64,000 bases of DNA, taken from assembly GCA_002633005.1 (NCBI GenBank), contig NMRA01000139.1, positions 756,816-820,815 of the forward strand, in the 5' to 3' direction. The translations under genes were made by a program, and so were the position numbers. The notes under the pieces were generated by a model that was not told the DNA's origin, did not search any database, and was given only the letters and a program-made list of their open reading frames with translations. Shown here piece after piece: positions 5,293-63,036 of this stretch. Origin of the DNA: Phoronis australis (taxonomy: Eukaryota; Animalia; Phoronida). Positions within the stretch are counted from its first letter, which is position 1. Each line of letters opens with the position of its first letter.

Positions 5293-5371
5293 ATGGTCGT
5301 TGTAATCAAGATCGCTCTTTGCGTAGTGATGGCAGTTGCTGACGTTACGTCCCTAAAAGAATCCCGATACG
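5293..5371 (+). CDS. Gene A exon 1, signal peptide
   Basis: MVVVIKIALCVVMAVADVTSLKESRY followed by G|gtgagt (phase 1). Confidence 0.8.
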
Positions 5372-8300
5372 GTGAGTTGATTTCGAATGAATGTGAGTTT
5401 TAATGCCAAACTGACCTTTTGTCTAAGAGGTCCGCCCCGGATTACACAGCGACACTCGAAGCTATCTGTATTTACACTCAATGCCGTCAACATCCGTCAG
5501 GCACATTTGCTGCCTCGTTTTCGTGCCAGTGGAGTTTCACATTGTTATTTGCTCGTGTCTGATTCTTTGCCACTTTTTAACTTTTTCACCGCATTTTTCT
5601 ATGCGTCCTTCCAATGCCAACAAATTATTACTGTTGTGCTACTGGCTGTATCTCCGACGTGAGAAATTTTGATAAACTGGACAAACACCCGTGAATGCGT
5701 GACCTGAAATTCTTCGCCTTCCCAATATCAACAAGCGATACGAAAAAGTGCCTGATTTCCAAAACGAGGTCACACGCCTTCTTATCTCCATGTAAAAGGA
5801 GAGTTCCATCGCCGTGCAATCCGGGACGGACCTATTGGTTTAAGATTTTTCTTTTATTGTTGTAGTATTCACCTGGGCATGCGTTGCAGAATTATTGCGG
5901 CTAATTAATTTAGAACAGTCGTACATGTTGGAAGCAGGGTCAAAAGAAAGAGCTGTGCACCCTTGGTGTTAGAACTGCGCCAGTCAGATTAGGCCTAAGA
6001 AGGGAGGCTTACATGTACATACATGTACGTGTCTCCCGATTGAAATTGCAGACTTGAGTCATTGCCTTGATGGCGACATACCTGGGTGCATGGCGAGTTC
6101 AGTTTTGAAAGCAAATACATATTGAGGAGAGCATACTTTAGATAACATTTGTCATGACATGAGGAAGGAGCGTTCTTTGTGTGTCCCGGGCTCGTTTTAT
6201 GGATTTTTGGCTCTATGAATCCCAGTCTTTTGCGTTACAGTCCAGGCACTAAGAGGAAAATTGAAAAAGTGGCGAGCAGTTGATAAATGTTTTTTTGAAA
6301 TTTGAAACTAAAAGAGAATGCTTTGATATCAACAGAAGTTGAAAACGAACCAACCCTCAAAACACTTGGTGAGCACGTTGAGTTCCGTTTGCCGTGTTCC
6401 AGGCCTCCTTAACAATTTGCATGTTTTTCAACAGATTTTAGTCTTAGCCAACGGAATTTGACAGAAGTAGGTAGTCATATGGTCACTTTTTTCTGGGCCA
6501 TCGATTAAAACTTATTGAGAATTACTTATAAAACTCAAGGTAGACACGCAGGTGTATTGTTTACCCTGATCAAAGATGCAGATTTACCTCGATGCAGTGC
6601 AACCCGTTCCAAACGCCGTAACACCTTTCGAGAGTCTATTAAATGCAAGCCGTTACATGATTATAGCTCACTGCATAAGATTACAACATACGTTATACAC
6701 CGTAACACTCTTCAACGGGCCCTACATGCGTGTTGCCGTGCGATCTATGATCAAGTCGACGTTTACTCTTGTTGCCAAGATTTTCGATTATATTCAGCTT
6801 CGAGACTAGTGGCAATCTGTATTTCGCGCTGAATTTACAAAATGGCAGCCTCAGATGAAAGTACCGCTATCCCAAAACTCTTAAGTCTCGCGAATTCACG
6901 CTTGTTCTCGTTGTTCAAAGAAAAGGCCGTCTCTATGTGGGCACTGCACATGCATGTAGCACTCGTTGAAGAGTGTTACGGTGTATAATGTATTGTAGTA
7001 ATATATTACAGTGAGCTTCAAGCGTGTAACGGCTTGCATTTATTAAACTCTTGAATGGTGTTACGGCGTTTGGAACGGGTGGTATTACACATACAAAATT
7101 GCCAAAGTCGAGCCCAGCTGGTGTTGAGATCTTGGCTGAGCTATGGAACCTTTCATCGATTTATTTCACATTCTTGACTTCCAAGGCATAATCTTGTGTT
7201 TTGTGGACGGTAAGAAATTTCATTTGTCTTGACCAAGTGCATGAACATAACAACAAAACGTATTCGAATGTCATCGGGTTTTTCGTCATTAAAGTTACTT
7301 TATCCTGCATTGTGCCATGTATGTAAACAGAACCAACAATATATTTGATACATCTTTATCGAACGTAACTGATCTATTCCAAAATAAGCCAAATAAAACG
7401 ACGACACGGTTCAAAGACACAAGCAGGAATCTTAGTTAGATCTGGTCCAGCCCCCAAACGTGTAAATAGTCAGGCACAAAAGGTGCGTTATAACTACATG
7501 TAAGGTGAATTATCCAGTTGAGAACTGATTCATAGGCATAACAGACTATTTGATGTCCTGAAATTGTGACGTGATAGGTCCTGTGCAGACAGATGCCCCG
7601 CGAATATTTTACGGTACTACTGAAGCATTGCGGCCAACTCTCATATAATCACCCCATGTAATTGCAATGTTTTTGTTCATTGCTTGGTGTATGACTTTTG
7701 TGCACATGTTCATATTGGTTTATTTATCACAAATTGTTTGTTTTATTAAAATAGTAAACCTTGCTTATAAACGGACTACAAGTCAGTCAGGGGAGAAGAT
7801 GGATGCTAAGATTGAAGACTGGGGTTCTTCATTGAGGGCAGTTGATGGTAACGACAATCCTATCTTCGAAGGACAGAGTTGTACACGTACTAATAAAACG
7901 ATGAACCCGTACTGGAGGGTTCAGGTTGGGGGACATGGGAGACCACCGAACGTCCCCATCCGCTACGTCATGATAACTAACCGGAATAGCGCAAGTGTGT
8001 TCTTATAAGTTAAATATGTTACTACAACAGCACCTTGCATTGCAAGTACGTTTTATTGTGCACAATGTATAAGACATAATATTTAAAAACTCATCTCATC
8101 ACAATTAGTTCCATTGTCTTTGTTAACCTTAATGCTACCTGGTATAAATATGCAGCTTTTGATCGATCTCCCTAAAAAGTAAGCAAAGGTATGTCAGGTC
8201 CAAAGGTATTGAAGCTAACCTTTCCATATAAATTGATTAATAGAACCGTCCCAGATTATACAGCTATAGAACTCCCCTTGTCCTGGAATTAGAAACGCGT

Positions 8301-11300
8301 GACCTCGTTTTGAAAATTAGGCACATTTTCTTGACTCATAAATTTCGGGAAAGCGAAGAATAGTCCTAATTCGTTGACATGGAAAGACGAATAGACTAAT
8401 GCAGCCGAGAAAAATATGTAAAAAATCAGACTACAACAAATGACATGTAAAAATCCAGTGGCACGAAAACAGGGCAGGAAATGTGCGATTGTCGATGTGT
8501 AATCTATTGCGGCTCTATTGGGTTATATGTGCGGAAGCTACCTTGTAAATCCACTAATTCCATGGTTAAATTTACGGAGCAATCATATGCATCAACTTTG
8601 AGCCCCACCTGTTAGCCATAATTATGTTTTCGCTGATTCTTCAACCGACTGTTCTTTTTAACAAGTTTGATCACAATTCACAACGAATTACCGGAAGTGG
8701 TTGCACTTCTTCGTTTTGGATTCTGTATTACCATCGAAGCGAAATTCTGAAAATGCTTGGTTCGAAGAGGTTAAATCATCATTTACCAATGAAAGTCATT
8801 TTACAAATCAAATCAATGAGGAATGACAAGTAGATATAGGTGTGTCAGAAGAGCAGTCCTATGACATCGCATTTTCATGTAGCAGTGTCACAAATCCTTC
8901 TCATTTTTCAATCCAGGTTGGCATTTGAACAACTTTGCCGTAAACGTTCTTGAAGACAGAAGTGACAAGCGACATGTATGTTACCACTTCAAGGGCAAAT
9001 TTCCGCCAGGGACGCGGTTGTTGAAATGTAAAGAAGGAACACCAGCAGGTTCCGTGCTAGAAATCAAAAGTCTCAGGAACAAGAAAGAGTTTCTAACCTT
9101 GTGCGAGGTGGCAGTATTTGGAGAAAATCCAGGTAATACGCCGACCCGTTGTAATGCAGGAGCATATTGTTTCGTGTTGTCCATGCCCGAGCATTTTGTC
9201 ACAACGCAGGCCAAACCGTCAATCTATTTGGATTCTCACCTATCATGTGTGCGGCGCAGCACTGAAAAAGTGAGGGGTGGCTAAAGCCCTCTCACCCACC
9301 TATGATGCACCACCTAATGACCGCGTGCGGTGTAGCAGTGAAAGAAGTGGGGGGCTATAGCCCCCTATGGTGCGCCGCCCATGTACAGTATCCGTGGCAG
9401 ATCTACGTTTTCAGAAAGGGGGTGATTAGGATTTGCGAGAATACGAGGGCAGGTAGAGGGGGGTTCTTCTTCCCGTGTAAGATTTTTTTTATTTTTTAAA
9501 TTTGATCCTGTCCCAGGTGCCGGTTTAAACCCCCTGAACCCCGCGTACATTCGCCTCTGCCCATTGCTCTCTTCTCTGGTGCATCCCAAACCTCGCTGAC
9601 GCCATTATATACGTGTTTTCGAGGGTCATGGTTCGTACAAGCAAGGCCCTTGGGGCAATAAATCTTTGGGATGACAAACACTATTTTTCCCATCACCAAT
9701 CATGTCAACCGCTACGGTTTTTACGTAATTTAGTACGTTTATTGTTTTGGAACGCCGCAGTGGCAAAGTGATGTTTCTAACATAATCCAATGATTTTACC
9801 ATTGATTACATATATCAAAAACCTTGTCCTCGTATGTAGTTTTTTGTTTTTTTTGTGAAAAAATAGACTGCGCTGAGTACAGTAAAATTAATGGCGACCG
9901 GGGACGTTGCTAAGCCGCCACTGCCACTGTGGTTACTGGTGAGATTCTTTAAAGCGACTACAAAGCTCATATTAAAAATCATCATTTCGGTCTCGCCGTC
10001 CACATAACAACCAACTGTCGACCATTTTACTTACTTGTACGATAGCAAGGCAAACGTTCTCACAAACTACCTGCGAATAACCTATCCCAGACTGGGTCAT
10101 AGACGATGAGCAGCGGCACTAATCCTTTCGCCACACTTCCATCCTGAGCTGTAGGAGACGCAAACTCCCAATAGTGATGTTCCCAGTTAGTTCTTGGTTT
10201 TGCAGTCGCTTCTGGGCCGGCTTGACGCGCAGGTCGCAAATAAGCGTTCTCGTAAAAATCACCTCCCACTTGCGTTTCTGTTCGGGTTGTTGTGTGACCT
10301 TGCTTTACCGCGAATTGCCTTGCGTCTAAGGATCGCAGTCCAGTTTCTAAGCTAAAACTACATGTAAGCAATGTGCTTCACGATATGTCCTCGATCTTGT
10401 AAAAGCATTCATACAGTTTACCGCAGAATTGGAATTGACAGTGTTTGACACACTCAGGGAATTTGTTAAATATATTGGCTATTGCATTAATCCAAATTAG
10501 GCTGGTACAAACCTGGAACAGAGGAAATAGAGAGCCCCGTCGACGTAGACTACAGAGGGCGTCCTTGTGCATCTGACGCCGGCAAGTACTGTAGCATGCA
10601 AGCTAACGGAGAAAAACTCGACAAACCAAAGTGCTTCGTTGCGAAAGCTTTGCAGGCGTGCACAATACCTCCATACTTTGGTTAGTTCGTGTTTTATTTC
10701 TTTAAACACTCAATACATCAAAAGTATTAAAGCCAAAATGTCACCACAACAGGTATTTGAAACTTTCGTTCGCTCTAGAAGCGTAGAGGCATGCTAAAAT
10801 GTGAACCATTTAGATTGCTTCTCGTTTTTGCGTAAAGTAAATCAGAAGTTAAGACAGTCGCACAGGAAAGAGCAATTTCATTTCTTACTTAATGCAACCT
10901 TTGGAAGTTTAAGCGAGCATCCGTTGACGCAGAGGCAACTCAACGATGCTTGAACTCATGTACATGTACAAAACCGTGTCCCGTTGAGACAAGTCTCTGG
11001 CTGACCGAGGAATTCAATTGAAAAATGACCAATGTACCTTTTATTTTTGTTTACCTAGAAGTCAAATTGTTCTCAGATAGTGTTTGCTTTCCCCAGCTCC
11101 GTATCCTTATAATACGAATTCGGAAGGTGCCGATGATAGCATGACCTTAAAACTATGCTTGCTCACTTTTTCGTCTTGGTGGCCATCAACAGTAGGAGTG
11201 GCGCTACACTCTTTCACAGTGCTACGAAAGGTAGCTCTGGAATGTTGTTTTACATTGCTTCACATTGGTTAAAGTAATGGAATCGACGTCATGACATTCA

Positions 11301-14300
11301 GTCGCGGGCAGTGATCGATCGAAGTAAAGAAAATCAAGGAAACCCCGATCCAGCGGCTTAAGCCCAAAGGAGTTCAGTGCATAGGAGGCGCATGCAAGTG
11401 GTGGCGATGTGATCGGTAAACTTCCAGCCAAGCATGCGCACTGATGCTCACACACGGAATGCAGTGTGCCATTCATCATGTTTCCACAGAGCCATTTTTT
11501 AGTACAGGTGGTGCTGTGTCAGAGGGTAGAGAAACGCCTTTTCGGTTGACGCCTATCTGGACTTTAGTTGGAGTGGTTAGAAAATACCGACCCTGTCAGC
11601 CAGCTAGAAAGTTTATTGTTCTTGGCCAGTCGATGACATTGGGAAAAAAGAAAATCATATACTGAGAGACGAATTAGTGGCAGACGTTTCGGCCTGGTCC
11701 GCCAGCCTATTATGATTAAATGGATTGGTTCCGGCCGTACAATGTGCGCTTCTAGTAGGTTGTTGTAGTTTTGGCTGTTTTATTGACTACCAAAACATAA
11801 AGGACGGCTACAAAATAATATAATAAGTTAGGATTATCCAAAGAAAATGCTAACAAACAGATTAAAAAAAAATTGAACAATACAGCTTCAATGCTTACAA
11901 CAATATATGCATACAGCAAAAGTGATGAAATTCAGTTCAGCTAAGTGATAGCAATCAATGGGCTTCAAAATTTGACAGCAAACTGGAACGTATGATTGAA
12001 AATAAGTTAATAGGAAAGGACATATAACAGATGTATACAGCATAATGTCTAGCTTTCGAAAAACATTCATGACTTCAGCTACAGTACATAGTTTGCTATT
12101 TGACAATTACGAAATGAATGCACAAGCGAGGTAACCAGCAGCGGCTTGCAATTATTGCATATGGAAAACGATAGTTAGGCAGCAAACAGTAGAAACATTC
12201 CAGTCAGGTCTGGCAAAGGGTCACTAAGTAATTTTGTGTTTCAGTGAGTGATTTTCTGATTTCCCAGTGTAAGTGTACTTGACTTTCACGCAGACGACTT
12301 TGAATATACTACGGAATGGAGCGACTGGAGTCCTTGCTCAGATACATGTGGTCAATCAACACGTCGACGACAGAAAGTTTGCGAGGAACCCGAGTTCATG
12401 GGGATGCCGTGTCCGAAACACTTTCCAGCAGAAATTGAGACTGATGTGTGCGAAACACGGACATGTGACTGTAAGTAATTCGGGCAGATGAAGATATCAC
12501 TCCTACAGGCACTTCTCAAAATATCACAGTACCGCATTTACCAAAAACCCTGCGCCAGTAGGAAACTCACCTGACAGTTTTGTCGGCTGCCGCACTGATC
12601 ACTTTATGTTCCCTTACATGTAGGGTTAGTTTGTCAGTCTTCATTCGGATAGCATTTGAGTTTTACTGTTTTACAGTTTGTTTCAACACATACCAAGAAT
12701 TCTAGAAATAGTCGCAATCAATGCTGTTATTACCCGACCCGACCAGGCCTGGATAGACAATAATTGCACAGATAATGGGTCCCCAGTAGGTTAAATACTC
12801 AGTTGGGTTCTAACTTTTCTGTGCTTACTTTGTTCACTATTGGCCAAAACCAGCGTTTATATTTACAATATGTGATTAACACTTACTCGTAAATTGTTGG
12901 CTACGTAATTGTCCAAATCTCGTGTGAAAAGACGATATGCCGCTAATGGTATGGTTGACACAACAATTGGCTGCAAACGGTAATTGCACACGTCCTCAGT
13001 TGGTCACATGTAATTTAGGGACCTGTGGTTCAATTCCCAGTCGGAGTTTCTGAATTTTCTGTGTTTATTTGAAAAGTATGTCCCTCGTACAATGTGATTT
13101 TGGGTTAAATCGATGATGTTGGGATTTTGCTTTGCATGGTCTCACAACGCGCTGGTGTACATAGCATGGTCTCACCACAACTTGATGTACACAGCATGGT
13201 CTCACTACAACTTGATGTACAAATGCACAGGTTTTGAATGTTTCCAAGGTCAAAGTCGTGATTAAACCTGGAACACCCTCATTCCCGATCAGTCACGAGA
13301 TAGCTCTGTACATTTGGTGTTACCCATTTAAAAACTCTTGTATATGACCCGTGAAGTGAACGATTTATCCATGCAATTCAAAACATAAACTGAATCCCAT
13401 AATTTAAGCGGGTCTGTGCAGTCATTGCGTTCTGTTGCGTTATAGCCGAGGGCAGTGGAGGGGACCAAGCATCTGGAGTCAACGTAGGACAAGTAACGGA
13501 TACAAACAGTTATCCCTTGTTAAACCACGCATCGCCAGGTAGTGCATTCGCTTTCCTCGATACTTACGGATGTTTTACTAAATCAGTGTTTTATACTTAC
13601 AGAGTCAAAGGGGGGAGGGTTCTATGCTCAATTGTAGTTGGGGCTTAACTCGAAATGCCGTTACAGCCGTTATTATTCACGCAGTCTATAGATGGAGAAT
13701 GACATGAACAAGATTTGAGTGTTACAAATATGGCTTTCTTCAATTATTTGAACTGCACATGCGCGGCTTGTGTATTCGGTGATCTTTTCTTCTTGCAAGC
13801 ATTAGGCGCTGCTCCACCTAGTACAAAGCTTTTATCGAGACGCCTTCATGCGGCGCCACCACTTCCCACTGAAAAGACAACCTACGAAGGGGTGCTGGAC
13901 GTGAACGAGCAAGACAGCGATGAAGGGCCGCCGGCTGCACTGGCCAACATTGGGTTCATCGAAAGCGCTAGAAACAGTGAAACTGAGCCGGTGACGGTAT
14001 TGGCGGAGTCCAATATACAACATCGTCGTACAAGCGTGAACGAAGAGTCTGGTATATGTGTCATATGTCTTTGCTGATGGTTTACATGAAGCACAACACC
14101 AAGCTATACACGAAAACAGTCGCGGATATTTATCGAATATGTTTGCAATTCTAAAGCAAGCATTCGGTATCCTAGTCTAGCCTCAAGTAAAAGATTGGTG
14201 ACACAGAACCTGATTTCGAGAACCTAAAGTGACATGGGTTTTGCATACCTACATAAAGGTGTTTGTGGAGGGGCGGTGGCATGTTCAGGGTATTTTCAAA

Positions 14301-17300
14301 AAACATGGCGAGGTACGCTGTGTAAGTTACCAGCAAGGATGTTCTACTCTTACTATTGCATACCTAAAACCTTCTGACATTGTTTTCATACAAGTTTTGT
14401 TTTCGTAGTAGCGAATTGTTCAAAGTCAGTATACAGTGTAGATAAATTTAAAATGTATACATGTAAGGTCCTAATCACAAAGATTGTTCTTTTGACCGTT
14501 ACCAACAGCTGTATGCTTGCCACCAAATAGCACCAGAATAACTTACACCAAAATCTGTACACAAAGTTTGTGTCATTTAATTACAGGACTCTCCGTATCG
14601 AGCGTGTTGGCCGGGTTTCGAGGTGAGTGTATTTTACTTTACCAATCTAACTTAGTCCACGATCGTGGTTTAGTTTAAGTTTATTCAAATGCTATTGTCT
14701 TAATTGCTTTAAGGATTTCCACGTGGTGTTCTGGGCTATAGATTATGTATCGAAAGAAAATTAATTTTTCTATGGCTCCCAAGGATTTAAAGACTTCCCC
14801 AGATTTCTTAATACCTTTTTATTGATCTGCGTCGAACAAGACGCGACGTAGCAGCTTACCTAGGTTTTGGTATCATAAGTCCCAAGACTAAGCACCCGAG
14901 AAACAGAGTATGGCATGTAATTTGGGCAAGGACCTATTTTCGGGGGACCAAACGCCCATTCATAGTTAAACACTGCATTTATGTCTCAATCGCATGGGAG
15001 AGCACCAGAGAAAGGGAAACCCACTTTAAGTACATCATTCTCTTGGTGTAAAGATCTTTCGTTGTCATTCCCTACAGTGCCAGGATCTTTGTCGACGATT
15101 CAAAAAGTTATGGTTGCGATGGTCTCAGTTACCCCAGTGACGCTAATAGTCGGGCTTCTTGGATGTATCCTCTATTTCGTGGACAAAGGCAGGCGGTGAG
15201 TAAACAGCAGACAAATGTTTCAGAGTTACCGTATTAAACCACGCAACTGTACACAAGGATAATCAGTTAATGTCGTGGTAGCTTCCCTATTCTGTCAAAC
15301 TCAAGAAGAGAACCGTGTAATAATAGAAGAGGATAACCCCAAATGACTGTTTGAAGTTTTGGTGGAGTTTCAGATGAAAGTCTCGTGGTTTTGCAAATTG
15401 TGAAATGGCAAGAAATAAGGACCAGGAGCCTATACCTTTATTTCAGGCACAGTGCATTGCATGTCAGCATATTTCTATCCACTCCTCTTAACTGTTACAT
15501 ATATGTTTGACAAAAAGCAACCTCAGCATGCTTAGTGCTGTGAAAGTCAACAAATCCATTTTGTGTTTTTTTCTTGTGTTGTTGCATCGTTATTTTTTGG
15601 ATTTTACACATATCATCCTTGACACTTTGGTGTAAACTGAGGCAAAATAAGGCATACTTACAGCCAACATGTCTTTAGCTGGGTCATGTAATTTCTTCAT
15701 ACAAAAATCAATATCGAAGTCCGCATAATTTAGTGATGCTCGAAAGTTTATTTTCTGAGTAGTCTCAAATTCCAATTTTTGTTCTAAAGGAAAAACATTT
15801 GTATGTAGGACTACAATAGCTTTTATTCTTGAGGAAAAACTTCCGTTGATAAACCAATGTCTTACAGTCGAAATTTTCCTAACAATATCAAATTTGGACC
15901 TTCTTTCTGTCCAATTCTTGCGGCCACAACATTTCGCCGTACATGTATATAAGACCAGGTGTTGTGATTTCTGGCAATAAGCCATGATTGTTCTATCACA
16001 ATTAAGTGGCTAAAACCATTGCATACAAATATTTGATTGAAAATAGAAACAAAACTGCACGTACATGTATTGCAAAGGTTACAATAGAATGCATAGATCG
16101 AAATAGTTTGAAATTGAATTGACTTCTGATTCGAATATCAGATGTGAACGGCTAATTTGAAGTTCTTGAATGCGTCAGATGATACAGACTACAGAGGTTA
16201 AAAAGCAGGAGAGTACTTTGGACTTGAAACGGTATCCGTTTCAATCTAGTACATCACTTAAGGGATTTTTCAGGTATTTTATGTACATTAGAAGCACGTG
16301 TAACCACCTATTTACCCGAATATTGAAATAATTCACAAGAACAGAAGTTTATTACGCGTTAATTAATTCTTTTATAGAGTGCACTTGGAGTATCTAATTA
16401 TGTTTGAGACAAGTGGAGCATGTGCTTGAAAATAACAATAGGTAACTTGAGAAGAAGGAAAAAAGTCTTTTATTTCATATTATTTTTAACCATTTTGAAG
16501 TTGTGCCATAGAATTGCTTTTACAGGGTCAAATACTGTAGATTCTACATCGTCTCATGACGTTATGTTAAAATATATCAAAGCTTACTCGTCCCTTCGTA
16601 AAGGAGTTTTTATATATTTTTAACATGTGATTTAAATATTTCAAATGGAATATAGGATATTGAATGTTATTACTACATGCCAAAATTCACACAAAATGAG
16701 AAAAAAAAATCGACTACATCAGGAAAAATTGTTGCACAAAGTATTAGAATACAAAAAATCTTAGATCAAACACTAAGTCTGATAAGAGACATGTGCCACT
16801 ATCCTCAAAAGCACTTTGGACACTTTATGCAACCGGCCTTTTCTTGAATGCTTGTGATGAATATGCATATTAGATGCCATTGTTAGTTACCCTTTACCTG
16901 ATTTGTAAAATTATTCTACAAGTACTGGTATTAATGGCACACCATTCACAAATCCACCCAAAAGTAGTTGGTTTAATCATTTTATTCTGTCGTATGCGTT
17001 AACACATGTAATCTTGACATCAGGACAATTTCCGCTTCAGCACCATTAAAATTGTTAAGAAATAAGAGACGGGACTGGATATTCATTGGTCTATAAAAAA
17101 GTGTAGTAATGTTGATATCAAACAGCTAATACTACGCAAACCATATTTTAACATTTCAGTTTAGTTTTTACGTTTGGCTACAGGTGTAGCAGCACGTCCG
17201 GCCTCTCGATTTGGTCACGGTTGCATTGCGTTGAAGCAGCGCATAACATACCTTGCAAATCCAAATTCGATAACCATGGATGGTTTAGTCTCACACCTCT

Positions 17301-20300
17301 TTATACGTGCTGAACATCTACACATGTACATTTGCCCCTTGTAATTTGCACAGGCGGAAAATTCCATCAACAGACGGTGAACAGGTCGGGCTTCTCGAAG
17401 GATACCCGGAAGATTTCGACGACAAAAGAAAAAGCTTTAGGCGTAAGTTGAATTGAAATTATTGCATGTAAAATAAAAGAGAATGCCACCCGATTTAATT
17501 ACTATTTTTTACCGTCTTAATCGGTCTATATCCACATCACCTCGTGTATGGTCGATCTTTTCTCGCCGAGAGGTGTCGCGTTAACTTTGAGGAAGGTGAG
17601 AAACGACGAAGCGACGACAGTGGTTCTTCTGCAGAATGAGTGCCGCAGTGGAGTGTTATATCGTTGCCTTGTGGCTGTGAAATATGAAAAGTACGCCGTT
17701 AATACCAAGTATGAGGCCATGAAACTTCTCCGCGTCTGTGTGCGGCATTTTGTCGGCAGTGATTTCACTGACGATCGAATGTCGGCTTACTAAAGGGCTC
17801 ATGCCACGACAGAAAAGAGACTTAGGCTGAAGACAGATGTTGTGCGTTGTGTGTTTACGTTCGGCAGGAGGCAAAGAAACGCAGGTGGCTTGTTGTTCAG
17901 TTGGTGATTATGGAGAATTGTANCGGATTTCGCCTACCGCCCGTTTAAAATACACGGGACGAAATTAGTACAGAACGCGATAGAACGTATTGTAGTGCGA
18001 ATCTGAAGTTCATTTGCCATAACAGCAATGCTTTTGGGCATTTTTCGAACTAAACGGCTAAAAACTCGAAGACAATAACAGAATACACTTTGCTACCGTA
18101 TTGCCTATTGGGCAAATGACCAAACGACAAGCTTTTGCCCCACTTCCCGTGACGTCACAGTTAAGTCTCACATAATCTCGCGTTATTGTTAGAAACTCGC
18201 AAAAGGCCTATTGTAGTGGGCCACGAAAACATAAAAAATTACAATTAATTCATGGCATGGGGACATAAAATTTTATATAACCTGTTTGGTGACTCAATGG
18301 TTCGCCAGGCTTCTGCCAACTCTTTTCCTAGCCGTAAAACATCGTAAGCGGACCTCTTTTCACACGCTGTGCAAAATCAGGGTGTGAGTCCGTGAGAAAC
18401 ATCTGCGATTTTATATCCTATGGTTATATGTTTGAGAATCTTTATTTAGATATTCGTATACATGTAAATTATTCGAATCATTGTTACTGTGCAACTTTTG
18501 CTCTGACAGTTCTGTGGAAGGATAAATTGACTTGGCGGTCTTCGACGATCTAGTAATTAGACTTCAAATTTCGCGGCTAATTCTCAAAAATAATCACGTG
18601 CACATTATTTCTCTGGATCACTAGCACAGTCTTTTCGTGACTGTAAGGTTAGTTTGCAAATTTGGCTGATTTATGTTCGTGATGCCATCAGTTCGGCCGT
18701 GACGGGCCTCGTCGAGTTCCGAGCAACTGGCCGGGATACCAAGCGTTTTGTGTGTTTAGAACTAAAAAAATTGCATTTCTAAAATTATAACACACAGCTA
18801 TGATCTCCTGTCTGTATTTCACGGACGAATAATTCGAATTTACCACCGAACAGACTCCTGCGAACGACATTGGTAAATTGGCCTACCTTACTTTGTAGAT
18901 TAAATCAGTTTTCAGCCACAATAAGATCAAAACCGGACGATCGCCGTACAAATAATAGCACCGTTGTTGCATCTGTGTATCGTAAGCCCAGTTTTTCTGG
19001 GCTTTATCTTAAATTTGATAGTTTTGTGCCTATCCAGTACAAGAGAGGTCTAGTCAATTGCTTGTTACACCGTGCCTGTAGAATCTGCTCCACAAATTTA
19101 AATTTTGATAGTGCCGTAGGTATGATTTTCCAGTTATTGCGTTCCAATGGTTACAATCTAAATTTTCTGAATAGCTGTAAAAGGCAATTTCTTTCAAAAA
19201 TGAATGAGGCAGATAAAATAGCTGTTATTTGACCCGAGAAAAAGAAAGTTTTCTTTTCTCTTGGTTACAACGGGCGAAGTGGTATAAAATTGAAACGCCA
19301 ATTATGTCGCCTTATTCATTGCATAGACCCAGCAGTTGAACTGATAGTTGTTTTCAAACCCCTTCGAAAACTTTCCAATATGCTGTGTCAACTGAAGTCA
19401 CCCATCCTTTATTGAACAAGAGCAATGTTGTGTATAAGGATGAATGTGACAACTGTAAGGAATTCTATATCGGACTCACACAGAGACGCCTCTGTGACAG
19501 GTTGAAAGAACATCACACCTCAGAGAAAACATATATAGACATTGTATTAGCTACAATCTCCAAGCCAACTCTGTTAGTATTATCTGCAGAAAAACTAATA
19601 AGGAGTTAGTGTACATTAAAGAGTCATTGGCCATTCAGAAACAGCATTTCACTGATTCTCTGAATAACATGCAGAGTTCTGCGAACCTGCAGCTATGGTG
19701 ATGACCAGCTACTGACCATATTCTATGTATCTCTCGCTTCACTCTATGAATGTTACCTGAGCTGTATGTTGGCACTTGTTGTCCTAAACTTTTGTAAATA
19801 TGATCCTGATGATGTCTAATGAAAAGACGAAACGTTGAATTGAACATGATTTTTTATTTGTGCGGCGATCGTCCGGTTTTTTGATCTTACTTTGTAAGCT
19901 ACGCTACGTCCAAATTCCTTTAAATCCGTAACAGCCAATAAAACAACACGCTTGTTCAATAACAAGATGCATTTTAAGGGGTTTACATCCAGTTACGATG
20001 ATTTATTGGTGTAAAACGATGAATTCAAGCGATAAGCTGACACCAGTATGCATGTTGTGAACTGCTGAACAGACTGCGTTTGAACCTCTCACCTGATTGG
20101 TTAATTTCAACACCTGCCATCAGGTGTCATGTAAAAGACCTGTGCTCGCTGTTATCGAGTTTAACTACTGGATATAAATTGATACAAAATAGGTTGTTTT
20201 TGGGTGGCATTCTCCTTTAAGGGAAACAAGTTTTAATTGTTCAATTGGCACAGCTACATGTACATGTAATTCCAGTTAGGTGGCACACCGCTGACACTGT

Positions 20301-26636: not shown

Positions 26637-26718
26637 ATGGCTGTTCAACGCCATTTTGGTATGGTTTTGTTTTTTAATGTTTTGAAGATGACTTACAACG
26701 AGCAATTGACACCGTACA
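26637..26718 (+). CDS. Gene B exon 1, putative signal peptide
   Basis: MAVQRHFGMVLFFNVLKMTYNEQLTPY + A|gtaagt. Clearly homologous to 50637-50718. Confidence 0.8.
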
Positions 26719-43036: not shown

Positions 43037-43294
43037 AAGACGAAACACTATGGCCGAGAGATGAAAAGCAGTTAAGGGGTTTTATCACGAATGCCAAGAG
43101 TTGGAGACTAAAATAAAAAATATATGTCAAGGTATCTGGAAAATATTTTCTTAAACAAGTCTGGGGTTTTAACTACAGCACTGCTTACAAAATTCTAATA
43201 AAATATTGGTGGTTGTCGGCTCGTAAACATCCGCTGACATCATAAGCATATGTATTTTGGTAATAGGAAAAAGCAGTGTGGAGGAAAACACAAA

Positions 43295-50636: not shown

Positions 50637-50718
50637 ATGCTCATTATACGTGATTTTTGGATGGTATCGTTTTTCAGCATCTTCAGGATGACTTTTAATG
50701 ACCGGCTGACACCCTACA
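50637..50718 (+). CDS. Gene C exon 1, putative signal peptide
   Basis: MLIIRDFWMVSFFSIFRMTFNDRLTPY + A|gtgagt. Confidence 0.8.
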
Positions 50719-53700: not shown

Positions 53701-56700
53701 AGCATTGCAAGAAAAACATAGCTCCATACTTCACATAAAAATCAAAAGCTCTTCATGCGCCACTGGTTTGTTGACCGATCGTTTGACACAGTTCGATGAA
53801 TCATTGGATTCTTGTGCGACTTTACACGTCTCGTACCTATGAGCAATGAGATATCTTGGTACGGTAGACACATTTAGCTCATCGCTAGGAGTGAGTAAAC
53901 AGAACAAAATATCACAATTGCGCTAGTAGGCTGCAGGGTGTACATGTATAACACTAGAGACTATAGAATCAATTTTGAAACCAATTAATTTTGGTGTTTT
54001 TTGTTTGCTTCTAACATGACTCTGCCGTCAACATTATATTCAGAAAAATGTTTAAGTTTCGTGTGTCTGTCCAACTGGTAATCTGGTATCCTTTTTCAGA
54101 CGATGGACTTTAATAGAAATAAAGTTTGCTCAAAAATTCTGTTTCTGATTGTGAAACACTCAAAACTACCATCAAAGTGAAATCACTACTGACAATTTGT
54201 TGTGAGCTGTGCGCATCACAGGATTGCAAAACGAATAACAATGAAGTGGAAGTTTGGTGAACGTAATTTGATTCATGGCGCTCTAGGCTGACTCGCCTAA
54301 TTTAAAGGCGATTGCCAACCGACTTAATTAGTATTTTTCATCGTCTCAATCGGACTCTATCCACATCGCTTCTTATACGGTCGACATTACCTTCTCGTGA
54401 GGTGCCTCATTAACCTAGGAGGAAGGTGAGAAGCGACGCAGCGACGTCAGTGGTTCGTCTGCAGAGTGAATGCGGTGTATCGGTTCCCACTTGTCCGAAT
54501 TATGGAGCTGAGAAGAAAGCGGGTATATCGTTTTTTGACTTCCCCGAGAGCCCGAAATGGTTAGGAAGTGGCTTGCGGTAGTGAAAAAAAAGAAAGGTAT
54601 GCTGTTAATAGCAAGTATGAGGCCGTGAAACACCTCCGTGTGAGTGGCCGGCACTTCGTCGTGAGTGATTTCTCTGACGAATTCCGGCTTACCAAAGAAC
54701 TATCCATACGTTCCGTTGCCTATGCATGTTCACGGCGCCTCTCTACAGTAGTATTTCTTGATCAGTGTATTCCGTTTCGAACTGATAGCCTGTGAAACCT
54801 AACGATGCGACCCTTGAATTCATCGTCGAATGACCTATTGACTAAAGTCGGGATTGGCGCCGGGCGAGTTGCCGTGTAGACGTCTACTATTCTGCGTTCT
54901 GTTTCAAAATGAATTATTCTCACCGTAAAATGATCCTAACCAATGCTTATATGAAACTGAAGCAAAGTCTGTCTCATTAGATACAAAGTGTAATGCCTTG
55001 GAGCGCTCGTGAGTGCAAATGTTTTGATGAGACAGCAATGAATAAACCACTGCGTTACCGGCTTTTGATGCCCCCAACAAAGGTAATTGACCGGGCACCG
55101 AGGCCGTGTGAGCGCATGCTAATTTAGTGTTTGCTGACAGAAAGCTGTTGTGAAACAAGTACTCGATTTATATGCTATTGTCACATGTTAGGGGAATCTT
55201 TATTTAGAAATACAAATACATTATATTATTTAAATCATTGTTACTGTTCAACCTTTGGCCTGACGGTCTGTGTACGGGGCCGATTTCTCGACCCCCGACA
55301 AGTAAGTAGATTTTCAGTTTCGTGGCCAATTCACATAAATAATTACGCGCTCATCATTTCTTTGGCTCACTATTATTTTCTTGACTGGAGGTTTAGTCTC
55401 CAACTCAAGCTGGTTTATGTTCGTGCCAGGTTGGGCGGCCGCGACAGGTCTGATCGGGTTCCGAGCCACTGGCCAGGATAACGTGTCAGTCCGGCCGCGA
55501 CGGGCCTGATCGGGTTCCGAGGAACTGGTCGGGATAACAAGCGTTTTGTGTGTTAAGAACTCAAAAAATGACAAGTACGAACAGCACATATCTTGATTCT
55601 CATGTCTGTATTTCACGTATGAATACTTCAAATTTATCTTCGAGCAGACCCCAAACTCCTGCTACGGACCTTGTTAAATTGGCCCGCTGAACTCTGTAGG
55701 TCACGGTGTGTCCAAATACCAATAAATCCGTAACAGCGAAATAAAACAACACGTTTTTATTAGAACTCGGGTACTTTTAAGGGTTTTATATCGAAGTTTG
55801 ATGATTTATTGGTGTTAAACGATGAATTCAAGCGATAAGCTGACACCAGTAACGCGAGTGAACTGCGGAACAGAATGCGTGTGAAACCAATTACGTCATT
55901 GGATAATTTCAGCACCTCCGTCTGCCGTCAGGTGTCAGGTAACGCAAACGAACCTGCCGTTATCGAGTAGAACTACTCAATCTAAATTGGTGCAAAATAG
56001 ATTGTTTTTGGGTGGCATTCTCCTTTAATTGTAGTATAAGGAACTGACTACATCATTTTCTCGCCGCTTACCAAGTTTCTTAACTCGCTCAAACATGCAA
56101 TGGCATGAGTTTGTTTCAGAATTCATATGGCCAGCTTTCCCCAGATCCTTACAATGTTTTATCATATTTACCCAGCTGTGCAGCATATCTACTCTTTTTG
56201 GGGGGCATATATTTCCCTAAATATGCGTGGAAAGCAATGAAGCGGTCTTAGCCATGGACACCAGAGAATGTTTAATTCCGTCTTTTCTGGTTTCCATGAC
56301 GTTCCTTCAAGCAAACCTTGCCTTCAACCGAGTTACATCGCAGACTGGGCAGAAACCAGGAACCACAGTGAAAGACTGGGGATCCTCTATGAAAGCTGTC
56401 GACGGAAATCCCAACCCAAACTTCGAAGGACAGAGCTGCACACACACCGACAACGTAATGAAACCGTACTGGAGGGTGTGGGTAGGAAGGTTTGGTCGCA
56501 AATCGAACTTGCCGGTTCATTACGTGATGATTACAAATAGAATCCTAGCATGTGAGTAAAATAAGTATAAGTATATTTAACCAATATCAGTCCGGTACAA
56601 GTTTGTGTCACACTAGCCAGTTAACCAAGGGGATTGTTAAACAGGGCTGAACGTCAGTACCATGAAATTATGGCGGGAGGTATAGTCACACGTACCGCAC

Positions 56701-59700
56701 TGTAAGTGTACATCAAATACTGACCTGGTCACATACCGTATACTATAAGGTGACAGTACGCAATTAATCTTGACACTGCGAATAAAACTGCATGGAAACC
56801 ATTCTCGAGAAAATTGCGACCGACGTCTTACGAGTGTTATTCCGCATTTTTTGTTTTTCCTATAAAGGTGTATCTTAACGAATTTGGCTGATCTTCACCA
56901 AACGAAACTAATTTTATTATGTCGTCATTTGAGTCAAGTCATTACTTGCAAGTTTAGGATGACGGACCACCGATTGGTTATAGTCACAATGAGTTGAAAA
57001 GAAGCCAATTCCATTTATGACCTGACAGTTATTGACCCACCAGTACCGACCACATCTGAATTTGTTATTACTGGATGTGCTCAACAACGAAAGACGGATA
57101 CGGTACTGCTCAGCACTATCTCTGGCCGATTCATCTGGCCACACAATTGTGTCTGTTTCAATGTGGGGTCGATTTGATTACAAAAGAGTATCTCCCACCG
57201 GAAATTGCTTTACTTTTTACAATAGATTTCAACGGTGGCGTTATCCCGTCAAATAAAACTGCCTATTATGGCAGTGGCGGGTCTAGGACGTGGCAAGGTG
57301 GGTGTAACGGGGCTCGATATAAACCAAACTGCTGGTAGCTATATCAAACTATTTATTTCGCAGATTTCAATCATGTAACAAATAAAACAATATTTACAAT
57401 GGGATAAAACCAGTTACAACTCACGGTAGATGATTTCCATACTAAAATTAGCTTTGCCACATGACATGTTCAGTGAAACTCACAGTTAGCAATCTATTAC
57501 CACACAGTTTACACATACTAGAATATATTAACAACAATAAGGCAACACCTATTGAGTCAATGTGAGTTATATGATCCTCGGCTACCTTTTGATTAAGGAT
57601 TCTTGAATGAAATACAAAATTAGTACGTATTACTAAAGTGTCAACAAAATAGAGCCACACCCAAACGGAACAACATGGCCGCCAATCATTACCCGTACAA
57701 TCTAATTCATCAAAACCTGATTTCATCTCATGATATATGATAGAAAGCACAACAGACTGGACTTACATGACGAGTTCCTCATATAGATATTAACAACATC
57801 AGAAGTATATAAATTACAAATCTCACCTAACATGGCAAACAGCTGCTCCAATATACAACCTTTCCCATACACTGCAGAAACAATAATGCCGTCAAAATCA
57901 GGGCCCGGTCTCCAATCTCCGTACTCAGACTCATACTCATACTCGAGATTTCATACTCAAAATCGTGCTCACTGGAGTCATACTCAAAAATTCGTATCTA
58001 ATGTCGTATTTCGAGTAGACTCCAAACGTACTCAAATCTGACACTCATACTCGAGTTGCTATGGAACTCTTTATGATGTGAAATGCAAAATCACGCAAAG
58101 CCGCGCTGATTCATCGCTCACTATTGGAATAGACCACCCCAGGAACTAGGCCTACATTATCGTCTGCTGTCGCTACAACTACAAGAGTATGTCTATAGCG
58201 TGGAATTCTGAGTGTTCTGTAACTGTTTTAGTTTCAATAAATATTCTTATGCCATTTCTTTGATACATTTGGCAATTATTAAGCTTTACTTCTTGAGTTC
58301 CTCACCCAGTCCCGNAACTGAGTACGTGCTCGAAATTTGGAGTACAGATTTTTCGAGTATGACATTGAATACACCAAAGCTGAGTCTGTACTCGAGTTGA
58401 GTATGAAGTGTGAGTTTGAGCATGATTCGAGTCTGAGTACGGAGATTGGAGACCGGGCCCAGGTCAGGATTGGTACCTCTGTTGGAGTGAACATAGAACC
58501 GGCATGAGCTAGTTACCCACACATCTACTATTTGAAATTACCACCCACAACAATGCCCCAACAAACCAGCAGCTACGAATGGTCTATCGGTGACACTTCC
58601 GGTGCCCCAAGCCAGAGAACCTTGGTTCAAATCCCGATGAACATTACTAATTTCTAAAATATATAAAATACAACACTATCATATAGGGGGCCAAAATCAT
58701 TTTGAAGAAATATGTAAACTGACCGCCCAAAAGCATGTTGAAGAAATTTGTAAACTGACCGTGGTATGTGTTTGCATTGTGTTGTTTATCATTTGGTCGT
58801 GGGACTGACCAGGCAGAGAAGTCTTCCTATGGACTTGCAATCTCCTATTATAATATACGTGGATAACATGTATTGATCTTAGATTGATTCTTTGACCTTG
58901 TATAAATGTGGAGAAATGTAAGCAAAGTAATTGACTTTCGCGTGAAGTGTTTTTAACCTTTGACAAGTAGAGTCTACATGTGTTTAGTTGGCCGCTTACA
59001 CAATTTCGCCGTGTACGTGGTGCAAGCAGGCAGACCTGAACGACATTTATGTTACCACTTCCACGGGGTGTTTCCACCCGGTACCCGACTTCTGAAGTGC
59101 AAGGACGACACGCCAGAAGCCGCATTGGTAGAGATTAAGCTTCTTTCTGACAAGAAAGAGATACTTACGCTATGCGAAGTGGCGGTTTTTGACGCTTATC
59201 CAGGTAAGCTGAGGCACGAGGAACATACATTGGATTTATCAAACAGGGTGCCACCGGTTTTAAAAAAGATGGTCGAAAGCACTTGCCTAATAATGAAATG
59301 AAGTGCACATGCTCGACACGTGAATTTCCGGATGTTATTTGCATTTGACGAATTGGCGACAGGTCAGAAAAATTCTCACTTCGTTTTTTTTCCTTTCAAA
59401 ATTACAATCACAAAATAGAAACTTATGCGATAGATAGCTAACGGAAACGTTCTGAAAAGGGAATATTCGATGTTATACAAGCCACTTTTTGATAAAAATC
59501 CTCTTGTCAATTGAGACACATGTTGATCCCAAACTCGTCATTATCTGTACGGAACAGTGACACGACGGGGAAACAGACCACCAGCAAGTGGTCTTCTGAC
59601 ATGTCAAGACCATGTAACCACCGACAATTTCCATTGCTTAATTTTAATAAGACGTAGATTCGCTTTGCAAAGAGGCGTTATATTCGCCTTTCACATAGGT

Positions 59701-62700
59701 CCGATTGAAAGTCACTTATAGTCCAAAATTGATCTAAGTTATGACCGAAAAGACCGTTTCATTAACAGAAATTTTGTTTTGCTAGTCGGTCTTATAGACA
59801 GAAATTTAGTGTTTTTTGTGGCATCGATGAGCGTTAAATGTACGCACTACGCTTTCGCCAACTGTTGCGAATTTACGATAATAAACGAGCCGGTGGGCAA
59901 AATACTGTTTAACGAATAATCTTGGTTTTGAAGTGAATGTTAAATTACTGATATCGAGAAACGAAACTAAATATCATGTACGCAAGTGACCTGTAGTTGA
60001 CAATGAATTTCCGTGAGTTCGTTACACTGTTTATTAAATGCTGCTTGGCAGGTCGCTGAGCAGCGATGCGAAAATCTTCAATACGAAGGTTTATATAACA
60101 GCCTGGGACACCTTAAATGTTTGTCAACCTGATTCCCAATTGATCCACGGATTGAGGCTGATTCCTTGCCGTCTACGGTAAAGCGAAATCTTCGATGCTT
60201 GTGGATATCGTAGAGGGAATTCCAAAATCTTAAGCACTCGATCCTTTCAATAGAATATTGCCTCTCCTAGAATAAACTGGTGCTTGCAAACCACATCTTT
60301 CATACCAGAGTAAGATATAAGAGATTATGGTTGTATTTATAGGCTGGTACAGACCAGGCACCCAAGTAGTCGAGAGCAAAGTTGACGTCACCTTTAGCGG
60401 TGAGTTGTGCCAGCCTCGCGGACCAGACACCAAATATTGCATTATGGTCGCTAAGGGACAGCCTGTAGACGTACCTCACTGTCCGACTTACACCAAGTTC
60501 GAGAGGTGCACCATACCTCCGAAAATCGGTATGCATGGAGGTTTTTAAAGTAGTTTTCCAACAAAAAATGAACGACATCAAAGTTTAAGAAAGTTTTAAT
60601 GCACGAGTGGGAGATTTAATATCCATATCTTTGCTACAAAATATCCATTTTACTCTATTTTAACTTCTTCAAATTGTTTATCGGTTTTAAGCGCGTTTAT
60701 GTATTGGAAATCTGCCTGTCTTTTGTCCCATATATCGAAATCACTGTTGTTGAATCTGTGAACCCCGGGGATAGTTTCAACAGACGTAATTAAGGCAGGC
60801 CTACCACAGTTACCGGTGCAAATTCCAAGAAGCAAAAAGCGCAAGTTTTTTACAAGCGCTCTGCAGCACAAGATTATCTGAGACATGTTACTCGCTATAG
60901 TTCATAGACACATTGTCATAGAAACGCACCGTTAAAATGAGTTTGTCAAGGGACAAGTTTATAGCAGCTCACCACAAAATCGATGAATTCGAGAGAATTG
61001 GCGATTGGCGAAAAAAAGTGGATATGCGCAACGACGTCAAATTCAATTATGGCACGAACCAACTACAGCACCTTTCGAACGCGTCAGGAACTTTATGTTA
61101 TTGGTACATGTAAGTGGTATGGGCTCGAACAGTGTAAATCTTGTGTAGAGCATTTTGTCGATGTTTTTGTCCACTTTGTTCTTTCTTCTTCAAAATAATT
61201 TATAATCAGACAACATTTTGGAGTGTATTTTAACATGGCATGCAAGAAATACACAGGTACCGTAAGATATGAAATAGAATGGGACGAAAATACTTAAACG
61301 TGTCCACTTAACATAGGCACGTGTTTGCTATTGCTCATGCAGATTTCATTACTGGATGTGAGTATATATACTTGTAGGATAAGCACAGGCCTTCATTTAA
61401 TCTACTAAAAACACCTAAAATCGTGTGTTGTTTCAGATGACTTCGAATACACATTGGCTTGGAACGAATGGAGTCCTTGTTCGACAACATGCGGTGAAGG
61501 CGTCCGTCAAAAAGAAGAAATTTGTGAAGAACCGGAGTTTTTGGGCACGCCTTGCCCGAGAGATTACAAATCAACGAAAAAAACGTCAATCTGTTCCTCC
61601 TCGCCTTGCCCTTCGAGTGAGTTAATAACAGTTTTATTAGTTCCTAGAGCTCATTTAAACATATCATGTGTTATTAATTGTAAAAGACTACTAAAACACT
61701 TAATAGAAAAGTCTTCTACCTACGACCATCAGCGAATGTGTACATGCGCGGAGTGAAATCGAGTTCATGTTTGTTCGTCAAGCTTCGATTCCTTAAGTTT
61801 CTGTTCCGCGCCACCAGCGGTCTCGATCCTTAACCGCTCCCCTACACTAGAGCACAACTGGTGTGAACATTTTCGTCCGGGACCAAACGTCACGTTCCAA
61901 ACAGCAGTTAGGATTGGCGGTTACATGTCCGGAACGTGGAGTTAAGGAATCGATACCGGAGTTCAGATCCGGATCGTTTCTACTAGCAGGAATTTACTGT
62001 CAAGTTAAAGTTTTGGAAGTGAAATATGTGCACTTGAGTTTCAACAAACACGTGAATATTTCAGCGTCGAAGATAGAGTGACATTTCATGTGAAGTTTTC
62101 AAAAACATTTCCGTTCGTCACGGAGGTCATTATAAACATAACTACGACTGTTCTTCACTTGCATAACACACAGTATAGCCGACAACAGAAATTATGTTTT
62201 GTTAAAGCTCTCCCCGGAAGTGAGATTCAAAACGTTTTAGTACATTGTAAGCACGGATTGTGGCTTGATGTCATAGAACAACATTTCCAGGACCTCCGAT
62301 TAGTTGTAAATGTTAATAAGCCACTTTGGCCGATGTTTTTGTTCGAATTAACTGGAGGATCACAATCATTTTTTGACAAAGGGCGATGTGGAATATCAGT
62401 GATTTACGGATACTCTTTACTTAATTGTCTCCCGCAGTTACTTTGAGTAAGAGATATTCATCCCGGCATTCATTCAGCTCTTCATGAATCTTCCAACCAT
62501 CCCTCTACACACTCACGCATACGGCCACTCAATTACGTGTATGCACCCTTCAAATCAGGTGCCTGAAATCAAATCTCACCTCTGCTCGTTGTAAATAATG
62601 GCCTTAGGTTATGGAACAATTCTAGGGCCATGCCTATAAATTCTAGACACGATCCCCTAAACTCTTATCCGCGGTCTAACTAACACTAAATCTCAAATCC

Positions 62701-63036
62701 TCACTACTAAACTCGAAAAAACGAGCCTGAAATGCCACTGACCGGTGATCAAATTCCTTACTTATGTCCAGAGGACTGATCTTCAGACCCGGTCCCACGT
62801 GCATGCCAGTAAGAGACTTTGGTCTGGAAGGTCGTAGATGGATTTAAAAGGCGATGCAATGGAATTGTTTCCTCTCCCTTGCTCGAATAGTAATTTACAG
62901 GTCAGTTCTCATCACTCATTTGCAGGTGTGAAGGCATATCCCGGAAATGTTGGTTCCGTTAAGGACACAGAAGAACAAACGCACAAAAGAGGGTACACGA
63001 ACGGCAGCACGACGCCGATCAAACAAACTCCGCCAG
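50637..63036 (+). CDS. Gene C: third paralog, 5' part only (signal, F-type lectin, kringle-like, TSP1, first stalk exon); presumably continues past the window
   Basis: Exons 50637-50718, 56312-56551, 58988-59203, 60343-60528, 61437-61616, 62926-63036. Exon 1-5 lengths (82, 240, 216, 186, 180) are identical to gene B. Confidence 0.85.
54306..56024 (+). mobile_element. Kolobok-like non-autonomous DNA transposon copy 3 (THAP remnant)
   Basis: TTAA|AGGCGATTGCCAACC...GGGTGGCATTCTCCT|TTAA. Frameshifted C.VPTCPN...ISFFDFP...RKWL.VV...HLRVSGRHFVVSDF at about 54470-54680. Internal tandem duplication of about 56 bp at 55437-55540. Confidence 0.82.
56312..56551 (+). CDS. Gene C exon 2, F-type lectin N-half
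   Basis: NLAFNRVTSQT...AVDGN...SCTHT...PYWRV...MITNRILA. Confidence 0.94.
57902..58459. mobile_element. Harbinger-type MITE, perfect 31-bp TIR, CAG target duplication
   Basis: CAG|GGCCCGGTCTCCAATCTCCGTACTCAGACTC ... GAGTCTGAGTACGGAGATTGGAGACCGGGCC|CAG, with subterminal TACTC(A/G) repeats. Confidence 0.92.
58578..58645 (+). mobile_element. Possible tRNA-derived SINE head (similar B-box at about 13028)
   Basis: A-box-like TGGTCTATCGG and B-box GGTTCAAATCC at tRNA-like spacing. No complete cloverleaf. Confidence 0.35.
58988..59203 (+). CDS. Gene C exon 3, F-type lectin C-half
   Basis: GRLHNFAVYV...LTLCEVAVFDAYP. 8 of 72 residues differ from gene B. Confidence 0.94.
60343..60528 (+). CDS. Gene C exon 4, shortened kringle-like module
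   Basis: GWYRPGTQVVESKVDVTFSGELCQPRGPDTKYCIMVAKGQPVDVPHCPTYTKFERCTIPPKI. Confidence 0.92.
61437..61616 (+). CDS. Gene C exon 5, TSP1 repeat
   Basis: DDFEYTLAWNEWSPCSTTCGEGVRQKEEICEEPEFLGTPCPRDYKSTKKTSICSSSPCPS. Confidence 0.94.
62926..63036 (+). CDS. Gene C exon 6, stalk
   Basis: tttgcag|SVKAYPGNVGSVKDTEEQTHKRGYTNGSTTPIKQTPP|gtacac, phase 1-1. Matches gene A exon 6. Confidence 0.75.

Follow-up and report, generated by a model that had tools for sequence, protein, structure and literature searches.

Lineage-specific mosaics of extracellular modules such as the F-type lectin domain and the TSP1 repeat are numerous in invertebrate genomes. F-type lectins are described as pattern-recognition molecules, and the usual partners of the domain are C-type lectin, pentraxin, CCP, transmembrane (TM) and FA58C domains (PMC5712786, PMC12221842). 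Among clustered single-pass genes with a proposed role in recognition, the LG5R cluster of the snail Biomphalaria has been linked to parasite resistance (PMC13712769). Here we describe a gene family in a 64,000-nucleotide stretch of the Phoronis australis genome (contig NMRA01000139.1, positions 756,816 to 820,815, hereafter the window), where three head-to-tail paralogs on the + strand, named A, B and C, lie inside positions 5293-63036. The evidence supports a predicted single-pass surface receptor composed of an F-type lectin domain, a TSP1 repeat, a stalk, a TM helix and a cytoplasmic tail, with RNA support for A, and with B and C as predicted genes.

A self-comparison of the window recovers four exons, in the same order, in three copies. 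The gene models were built by hand and cover A (5293-23261), B (26637-43036) and part of C (50637-63036); their exons are given in Table 1. Every internal exon border is GT-AG, the lectin exon pair measures 240 + 216 nt in all three paralogs, and all junctions before the TM exon are in phase 1, with the TM exon ending in phase 2 and the next one again in phase 1. A and B are open through to a single terminal stop, giving predicted products of 943 amino acids (aa) (including a 93-nt exon revealed by RNA) and 653 aa, respectively, and C is truncated where the window stops, with neither a TM nor a tail exon seen. Thus, the claim of the original prediction, made from the sequence alone, that these are paralogs of identical exon order, phase and lectin exon length stands for the shared exons, but the number of stalk exons differs (93 + 252 + 36 nt in A versus a predicted 243 + 156 nt in B) and C is incomplete. 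A translated search of the 64-kb window found no fourth copy.

For gene A, four RNA runs carrying the same species label (X1-X4, three of them raw-read runs of which about one fifth was used) were compared with positions 4600-24200. Reads join at least 7 of the 10 junctions of A, with 27-48 reads each in X1 and X2 and always in the orientation expected for + strand RNA. These junctions connect, among others, the leader with the first lectin exon, the second lectin exon with exon 4, the stalk with the TM helix, the TM helix with the tail, and exon 10 with the last exon; the junctions 10680-12294, 13538-13800 and 14051-14587 are backed by depth only. The depth follows exon content in both runs (r = 0.99 over 15 of 30 bins, chosen to avoid repeats), ranging from 33 to 83 across all exon bins tested. 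For X1 and X2 this corresponds to about 34-39 reads per kb per million, and X3 shows none. RNA ends accumulate at 5193 and 5207. Among the matches listed, neither X3 nor X4 has junction reads. Based on junction reads and depth, A gives a single spliced transcript that occurs in two samples and is missing from a third, and the joining of ectodomain exons to TM and tail exons, a check named beforehand, is borne out by the reads of X1 and X2. The junction 12470-13446 revealed a 93-nt stalk exon absent from the sequence-only model; a stalk exon can therefore be missed by such prediction, and the leader and stalk exons of B and C are given as predictions. At position 13941 all reads differ from the window (40/40 in X1, 32/32 in X2), changing Leu376 to Gln in the A stalk, either as an allele or as an assembly error. 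Separately, 69-112 reads (X1, X2) go back by 134-136 bases at a short repeat in the third intron of A (9247-9382), which likely has a tandem copy elsewhere in the genome.

The F-type lectin domain is split across two exons, and Pfam scores the separate halves below cut-off. Once spliced, the lectin regions of A, B and C reach 67-73 bits over positions 3-146 of a 151-position profile, a comparison that is partly circular, since B served as query in choosing the 14 fetched proteins whose 54 domains make up the profile. Independently of this profile, the first lectin half of B matches the PDB sequences of FBP32 (3cqo, E 4e-18) and the eel lectin (1k12, E 1e-7), as well as 2j1r, and the assignment as F-type lectin is thereby upheld. 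Relatives of the first half were recovered in 14 of 20 candidates, at identities of at most 49%, and a kringle or TSP1 Pfam domain is not listed for any of the 14 fetched lectin proteins; the alignment search with the second half retained none of 293 candidates. One metagenome locus (68% GC) was rejected as a chance hit, its match spanning only 21 codons.

Two motifs, h2DGx for calcium binding and HX24RXDX4[RK] for fucose binding, are defined in PMC12221842. The former is intact as AVDGN in all three paralogs. B and C keep His72, Arg104 and Arg110, with a His-Arg spacing of 31 (a 5-residue insertion) and loss of the Asp; A carries Arg71, Arg103 and His109, i.e., the first and last residues are swapped relative to His/Arg/Arg. 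In the comparison set, the 35 of 54 fetched domains which could be parsed by pattern, His is found in 29, Arg or Lys at the last position in all 35, and the shorter loop of A-C in 6. With His/Arg/Arg retained but the loop Asp missing, fucose or a related sugar may still be a ligand of B and C; for A we infer binding with a changed specificity or none at all.

All three paralogs exceed the Pfam TSP_1 cut-off of 21.6 bits (39.8 in A, 51.7 in B and 42.7 in C), with the six cysteines and the WxxWxxC motif present, as had been anticipated. The preceding exon, exon 4, was originally called kringle-like, a label for which no support emerged. It encodes 59-61 residues in phase 1-1 with four invariant cysteines spaced 7-9/13/8, whereas a kringle spans 78-80 residues and holds three disulfides (PMC6389260). 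No kringle was among the Pfam, PDB-sequence, Atlas or 1.84-billion-representative (HMMER) matches for exon 4, under filters that hide very weak matches. The kringle entry in Pfam (PF00051) gave no profile match, and a PROSITE-type kringle pattern is absent from the exon. Relatives of exon 4 numbered none of 2 candidates in a word-indexed protein search and none of 135 among metagenome contigs, with no usable Atlas match. Several hits were discarded: the two from the 1.84-billion search, to repeat proteins of the CARDB/DUF11 and plant zinc-finger kinds, which sum weak repeats; the PDB sequences of IL-18 receptor, P transposase and Utp5 (E 0.013-3.1); and Pfam Ragweed_pollen, in A only (E 0.028). 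AlphaFold models of the exon have pLDDT values of 41 and 51, and the fold searches with them were empty, which is uninformative at that quality. Because length and cysteine count depart from the definition of a kringle and the searches lend it no support, exon 4 should on present comparisons be labelled a 4-cysteine module without a family match. The short motifs around its cysteines do resemble those at the inner cysteines 2-5 of kringles, and the phase 1-1 of the exon is a further likeness; a degenerate kringle, which would have to lack the outer disulfide and some 18 residues, is possible if somewhat doubtful.

In A, the hydropathy of the leader and of the TM helix and the RNA junctions agree with a predicted signal peptide and one predicted TM segment. 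In B, the predicted TM helix is clear, with a 19-residue Kyte-Doolittle (KD) peak of 2.47 versus 2.26 in A, and the leader is weak as a signal peptide. Accordingly, of the complete frames with signal peptide, TM helix and tail originally described for A and B, the frames, helices, tails and A leader stand, and the B signal peptide is in question. The first exons of B and C are homologous (14/27 identical residues, score 82 versus a best shuffle of 33 in 500 shuffles), and no further homologue of them occurs elsewhere in the window. Alternative leader exons for the two genes, equally or more hydrophobic, were rejected for having no counterpart in the other paralog; additional in-frame exon candidates in B introns (e.g., 35795-35914) are without support. 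Between A and B, a 40-nt exon-like stretch (24770-24809, +), whose pyrimidine tract and donor are strong, might belong to B as a 5' exon, and no counterpart of it was found upstream of C.

The stalks of A and B are rich in Ser/Thr/Pro (28-37%) and not alignable, the score being reached by 199 of 500 shuffles. The 93-nt exon of A has a Ser-Gly pair in acidic context, a possible glycosaminoglycan site. Homology between A and B extends to their TM exons (score 74 versus a best shuffle of 37 in 500 shuffles) and to the first 180 residues of their tails (204 versus 87, 500 shuffles). The tails comprise 484 residues in A and 191 in B, 37-39% of them charged, and neither has a Pfam or Atlas match, consistent with the tail free of a catalytic domain that had been proposed. 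In both A and B, the first tail exon encodes an acidic dileucine motif 14-17 residues past the membrane (shuffle chance 0.019 and 0.037), and the B tail also has a second acidic dileucine, a YxxPhi motif and a basic run.

Lectin head, disulfide modules, stalk, anchor, sorting motif and disordered tail together make up the anatomy of a capture receptor. We favour, with moderate confidence, the reading that A-C are cell-type-restricted type I receptors for glycan recognition, in which the F-type lectin head binds a sugar-bearing target that is then internalized by clathrin-mediated endocytosis. The outermost lectin domain would contact the target, the 4-cysteine module and TSP1 repeat would serve as a rigid spacer or second contact, and a glycosylated, Ser/Thr/Pro-rich stalk would raise the lectin head off the membrane. 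On the inner side, the acidic dileucine motif would recruit clathrin adaptors for receptor uptake, with the remaining tail as a disordered scaffold. Microbes, particles or host glycoconjugates would be the likely objects of recognition.

Several results weigh against this capture-receptor reading. The canonical fucose motif fails in all three paralogs, so that the canonical fucose binding assumed in the original prediction is doubtful. An Asp or Glu two residues after the Arg is present in 33 of the 35 parsed domains, and none of the 35 has Arg at the His position or His at the last one, by which measure the pocket swap of A is unusual. The N-termini of B and C are weakly hydrophobic and make poor signal peptides. 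The dileucine is one of seven motifs scanned, and its copies in A and B are not independent; ITAM, ITIM and NPxY were not found in the same scan of the A and B tails, and endocytosis leaves most of the 484-residue tail of A unexplained. Finally, the B versus C ratio of nonsynonymous to synonymous divergence (dN/dS), at 0.07-0.18, indicates conservation and no arms race.

The broken fucose motif, taken together with purifying selection, the TSP1 repeat and the long charged tail, would also suit adhesion or tissue-patterning receptors in which the lectin fold is reused for protein contact, with sugar binding lost or secondary, in the manner of Drosophila Furrowed; Furrowed and CG9095 are described as membrane-bound F-type lectin mosaics whose sites are degenerate (PMC5712786, PMC12221842). 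We regard this explanation as possible but rather unlikely, as the His/Arg/Arg triad of B and C and the swapped basic-type residues of A suggest a maintained ligand pocket, and no exon scanned in A, B or C has a Pfam match to the CCP or C-type lectin domains of those proteins.

Over exons 2-5, B and C are 78-89% identical, and A is 44-65% identical to either. Between B and C, dN/dS is 0.18, 0.07, 0.09 and 0.11 for exons 2, 3, 4 and 5, respectively, 98 of the 150 differences in these exons fall at third positions, and dN is 0.129 in exon 2, which holds binding loops, versus 0.058 in exon 3. By these measures the paralogs are old and under purifying selection, and for the earlier description as lineage-expanded the window offers three copies. 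Fast-evolving immune or gamete roles are disfavoured by purifying selection and by the broken fucose motif. Gamete recognition on sperm or egg membranes would find a precedent in oyster bindin, whose F-type lectin domains act in this way and include variants without the triad (PMC5712786), and A is absent from one of three raw-read runs; given the single lectin domain and low dN/dS, against hypervariable multi-repeat bindins, and no alternative joints for the A lectin exons among the matches listed, we consider it improbable. A polymorphic self/non-self (allorecognition) locus, each paralog and allele having its own specificity, would agree with tandem single-pass genes, a pocket that differs between A and B/C, and an exon 2 dN twice that of exon 3. 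Such a locus appears slightly less probable still, since dN/dS is far below 1, the window holds three copies, and a single coding difference in A, that at 13941, is found among the matches listed (40 of 633). The same divergence data bear on whether only A is a working receptor, with B and C secreted, mis-modelled or decaying. The RNA evidence covers A alone, the signal exons of B and C are weak, their stalk exons have no paralog support and the 3' end of C is outside the window, but the open frames, third-position bias and low dN/dS of B and C, and the homology of the B TM helix and tail to those of A, make this very improbable.

Returning to the capture receptor, a bolder version holds that exon 4 is a new exon-shuffled disulfide module of 60 residues (or a kringle reduced to its two inner disulfides), set in a new receptor family, and that the lectin pockets were rewired, so that the paralogs would read different glycans and carry them in, as a lineage-specific recognition system; we advance it tentatively, considering it unlikely as a whole. 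In our searches the family is not matched to a described protein, and it combines two known domains with the 4-cysteine module and an unusual lectin pocket. The locus adds a transcribed, predicted membrane-anchored architecture to the F-type lectin family, together with paralogs in which His and Arg have naturally traded places in the fucose-binding triad, and with a conserved small cysteine module without a detectable relative. If endocytic, the receptors would be an F-type counterpart of the C-type lectin uptake receptors. The finding overturns nothing.

Table 1. Exons of paralogs A, B and C, in positions of the window. Paired read numbers refer to X1 + X2.
Feature	Position	Strand	Evidence
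A exon 1, predicted signal peptide	5293..5371	+	Hydrophobic N-terminus, KD 2.41; junction to 7755 in 47 + 46 reads
A exon 2, F-type lectin first half	7755..7994	+	240 nt; Arg71 at His position, Arg103; junction to 8917 in 36 + 38 reads
A exon 3, lectin second half	8917..9132	+	216 nt; His109 at last basic position; junction to 10501 in 38 + 37 reads
A exon 4, 4-cysteine module (originally "kringle-like")	10501..10680	+	Acceptor shown by RNA
A exon 5, TSP1 repeat	12294..12470	+	Pfam TSP_1 39.8 bits; donor shown by RNA
A exon 6, 93-nt stalk exon	13446..13538	+	Junction 12470-13446 in 48 + 34 reads; donor inferred (frame, depth)
A exon 7, stalk	13800..14051	+	Depth matches; its junctions not among the matches listed
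A exon 8, 36-nt stalk exon	14587..14622	+	Junction to 15078 in 37 + 38 reads
A exon 9, predicted TM helix (~aa 437-458)	15078..15195	+	KD 2.26; junction to 17354 in 44 + 27 reads
A exon 10, juxtamembrane tail, acidic dileucine motif	17354..17442	+	Junction to 21910 in 39 + 38 reads
A last coding exon, charged low-complexity tail and stop	21910..23261	+	Depth ~63 in X1, X2, 0 in X3; AATAAA at 23295
B candidate exon 1, atypical signal-like peptide	26637..26718	+	Homologous to 50637-50718 only, equal length and phase; predicted
B lectin first half; His72, Arg104	30486..30725	+	Matches 3cqo, 1k12
B lectin second half; Arg110	31222..31437	+	65% identity with A exon 3
B 4-cysteine module	32777..32962	+	Identity 47% with A, 89% with C
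B TSP1 repeat	35140..35319	+	Pfam TSP_1 51.7 bits; matches thrombospondin-1 structures
B predicted stalk exon	39176..39418	+	Open frame, phase 1-1, good splice sites; without paralog support
B second predicted stalk exon	39829..39984	+	Open frame, phase 1-1, good splice sites; without paralog support
B predicted TM exon	40602..40698	+	KD 2.47; homologous to A TM exon
B predicted juxtamembrane tail exon, acidic dileucine motif	41306..41397	+	Phase 2-1, as A exon 10
B last coding exon, tail and stop	42567..43036	+	~40% identity with first third of A tail; AATAAA at 43112
C candidate exon 1	50637..50718	+	Homologous to B exon 1; predicted
C lectin first half; His72, Arg104	56312..56551	+	78% identity with B
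C lectin second half; Arg110	58988..59203	+	89% identity with B
C 4-cysteine module	60343..60528	+	89% identity with B
C TSP1 repeat	61437..61616	+	Pfam TSP_1 42.7 bits
C candidate first stalk exon	62926..63036	+	Open frame, phase 1-1, weak donor score 3.2; predicted; gene continues past window

The window has a GC content of 41%, CpG near expectation, and introns that are long and rich in repeats, as would suit an invertebrate genome; it has no Rfam match. Dispersed repeats, 67-79% alike, lie at 17474-20220 in the last intron of A, at 45559-47682 and 49158-49378 in the B-C spacer and at 54303-56028 in the first intron of C. Inverted pairs are found at 6602-6741/6941-7080 (85% alike) and 5501-5836/8239-8486 (about 75%), the latter flanking A exon 2, and a 33-base tandem unit (63414-63731, 8.5 copies, 95% matches) stands just downstream of the last C exon in the window. 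At 3-455 (-) lies an open frame, probably a DNA transposon fragment, that weakly matches HTH_Tnp_4 (E 0.13). The last intron of A has broken frames at 18804-19660 (+) with a weak GIY-YIG match (E 0.044) and reads on both strands in all runs, probably a Penelope-like retroelement remnant. Two open frames at 48101-49051 (-) without a Pfam match resemble a non-LTR retrotransposon remnant.

With respect to the literature, no paper was found that joins an F-type lectin to a kringle or describes the whole architecture, in a search whose scope left out most subscription papers and supplementary domain tables. A 2015 survey of F-type lectin domain architectures is reportedly due to Bishnoi and colleagues, and it or InterPro could hold this arrangement. 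A joint query for fucolectin, kringle and thrombospondin surfaced only a mussel transcriptome (PMC4581086), and neither "kringle" nor "thrombospondin" appears in the main text of the two F-type lectin reviews (PMC5712786, PMC12221842). The original prediction knew of no described protein with this architecture, and none that matches emerged from our searches, although mosaic membrane F-type lectins and clusters of fucolectin-like single-pass genes have been published.

Among these, the Drosophila proteins Furrowed and CG9095 likewise join an F-type lectin domain, degenerate at its sugar site, to further extracellular modules and a predicted TM segment (PMC5712786, PMC12221842), but they carry CCP repeats and a C-type lectin domain, where A and B have a single TSP1 repeat besides the 4-cysteine module, and also a stalk and a charged tail of 191-484 residues. 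The fish fucolectins AAA (1k12, eel) and FBP32 (3cqo, striped bass) are secreted oligomers with the full motif, whereas the paralogs described here are predicted to be membrane-anchored, with the 5-residue His-Arg insertion and no Asp. Oyster bindin shares an F-type lectin domain with variant triads but is a hypervariable sperm acrosomal protein of variable repeat number, in contrast to the single domain, purifying selection and predicted TM helix and tail found here. The SCARF-like LG5R genes of Biomphalaria differ in having EGF/Tie2-ligand-binding modules in place of TSP1 and the 4-cysteine module; by their description, however, they too are clustered single-pass genes, some with galactose-binding/fucolectin-like signatures, with mostly domain-free tails and a proposed role in recognition, and by analogy this snail cluster would be the closest working analogue that we found (PMC13712769).

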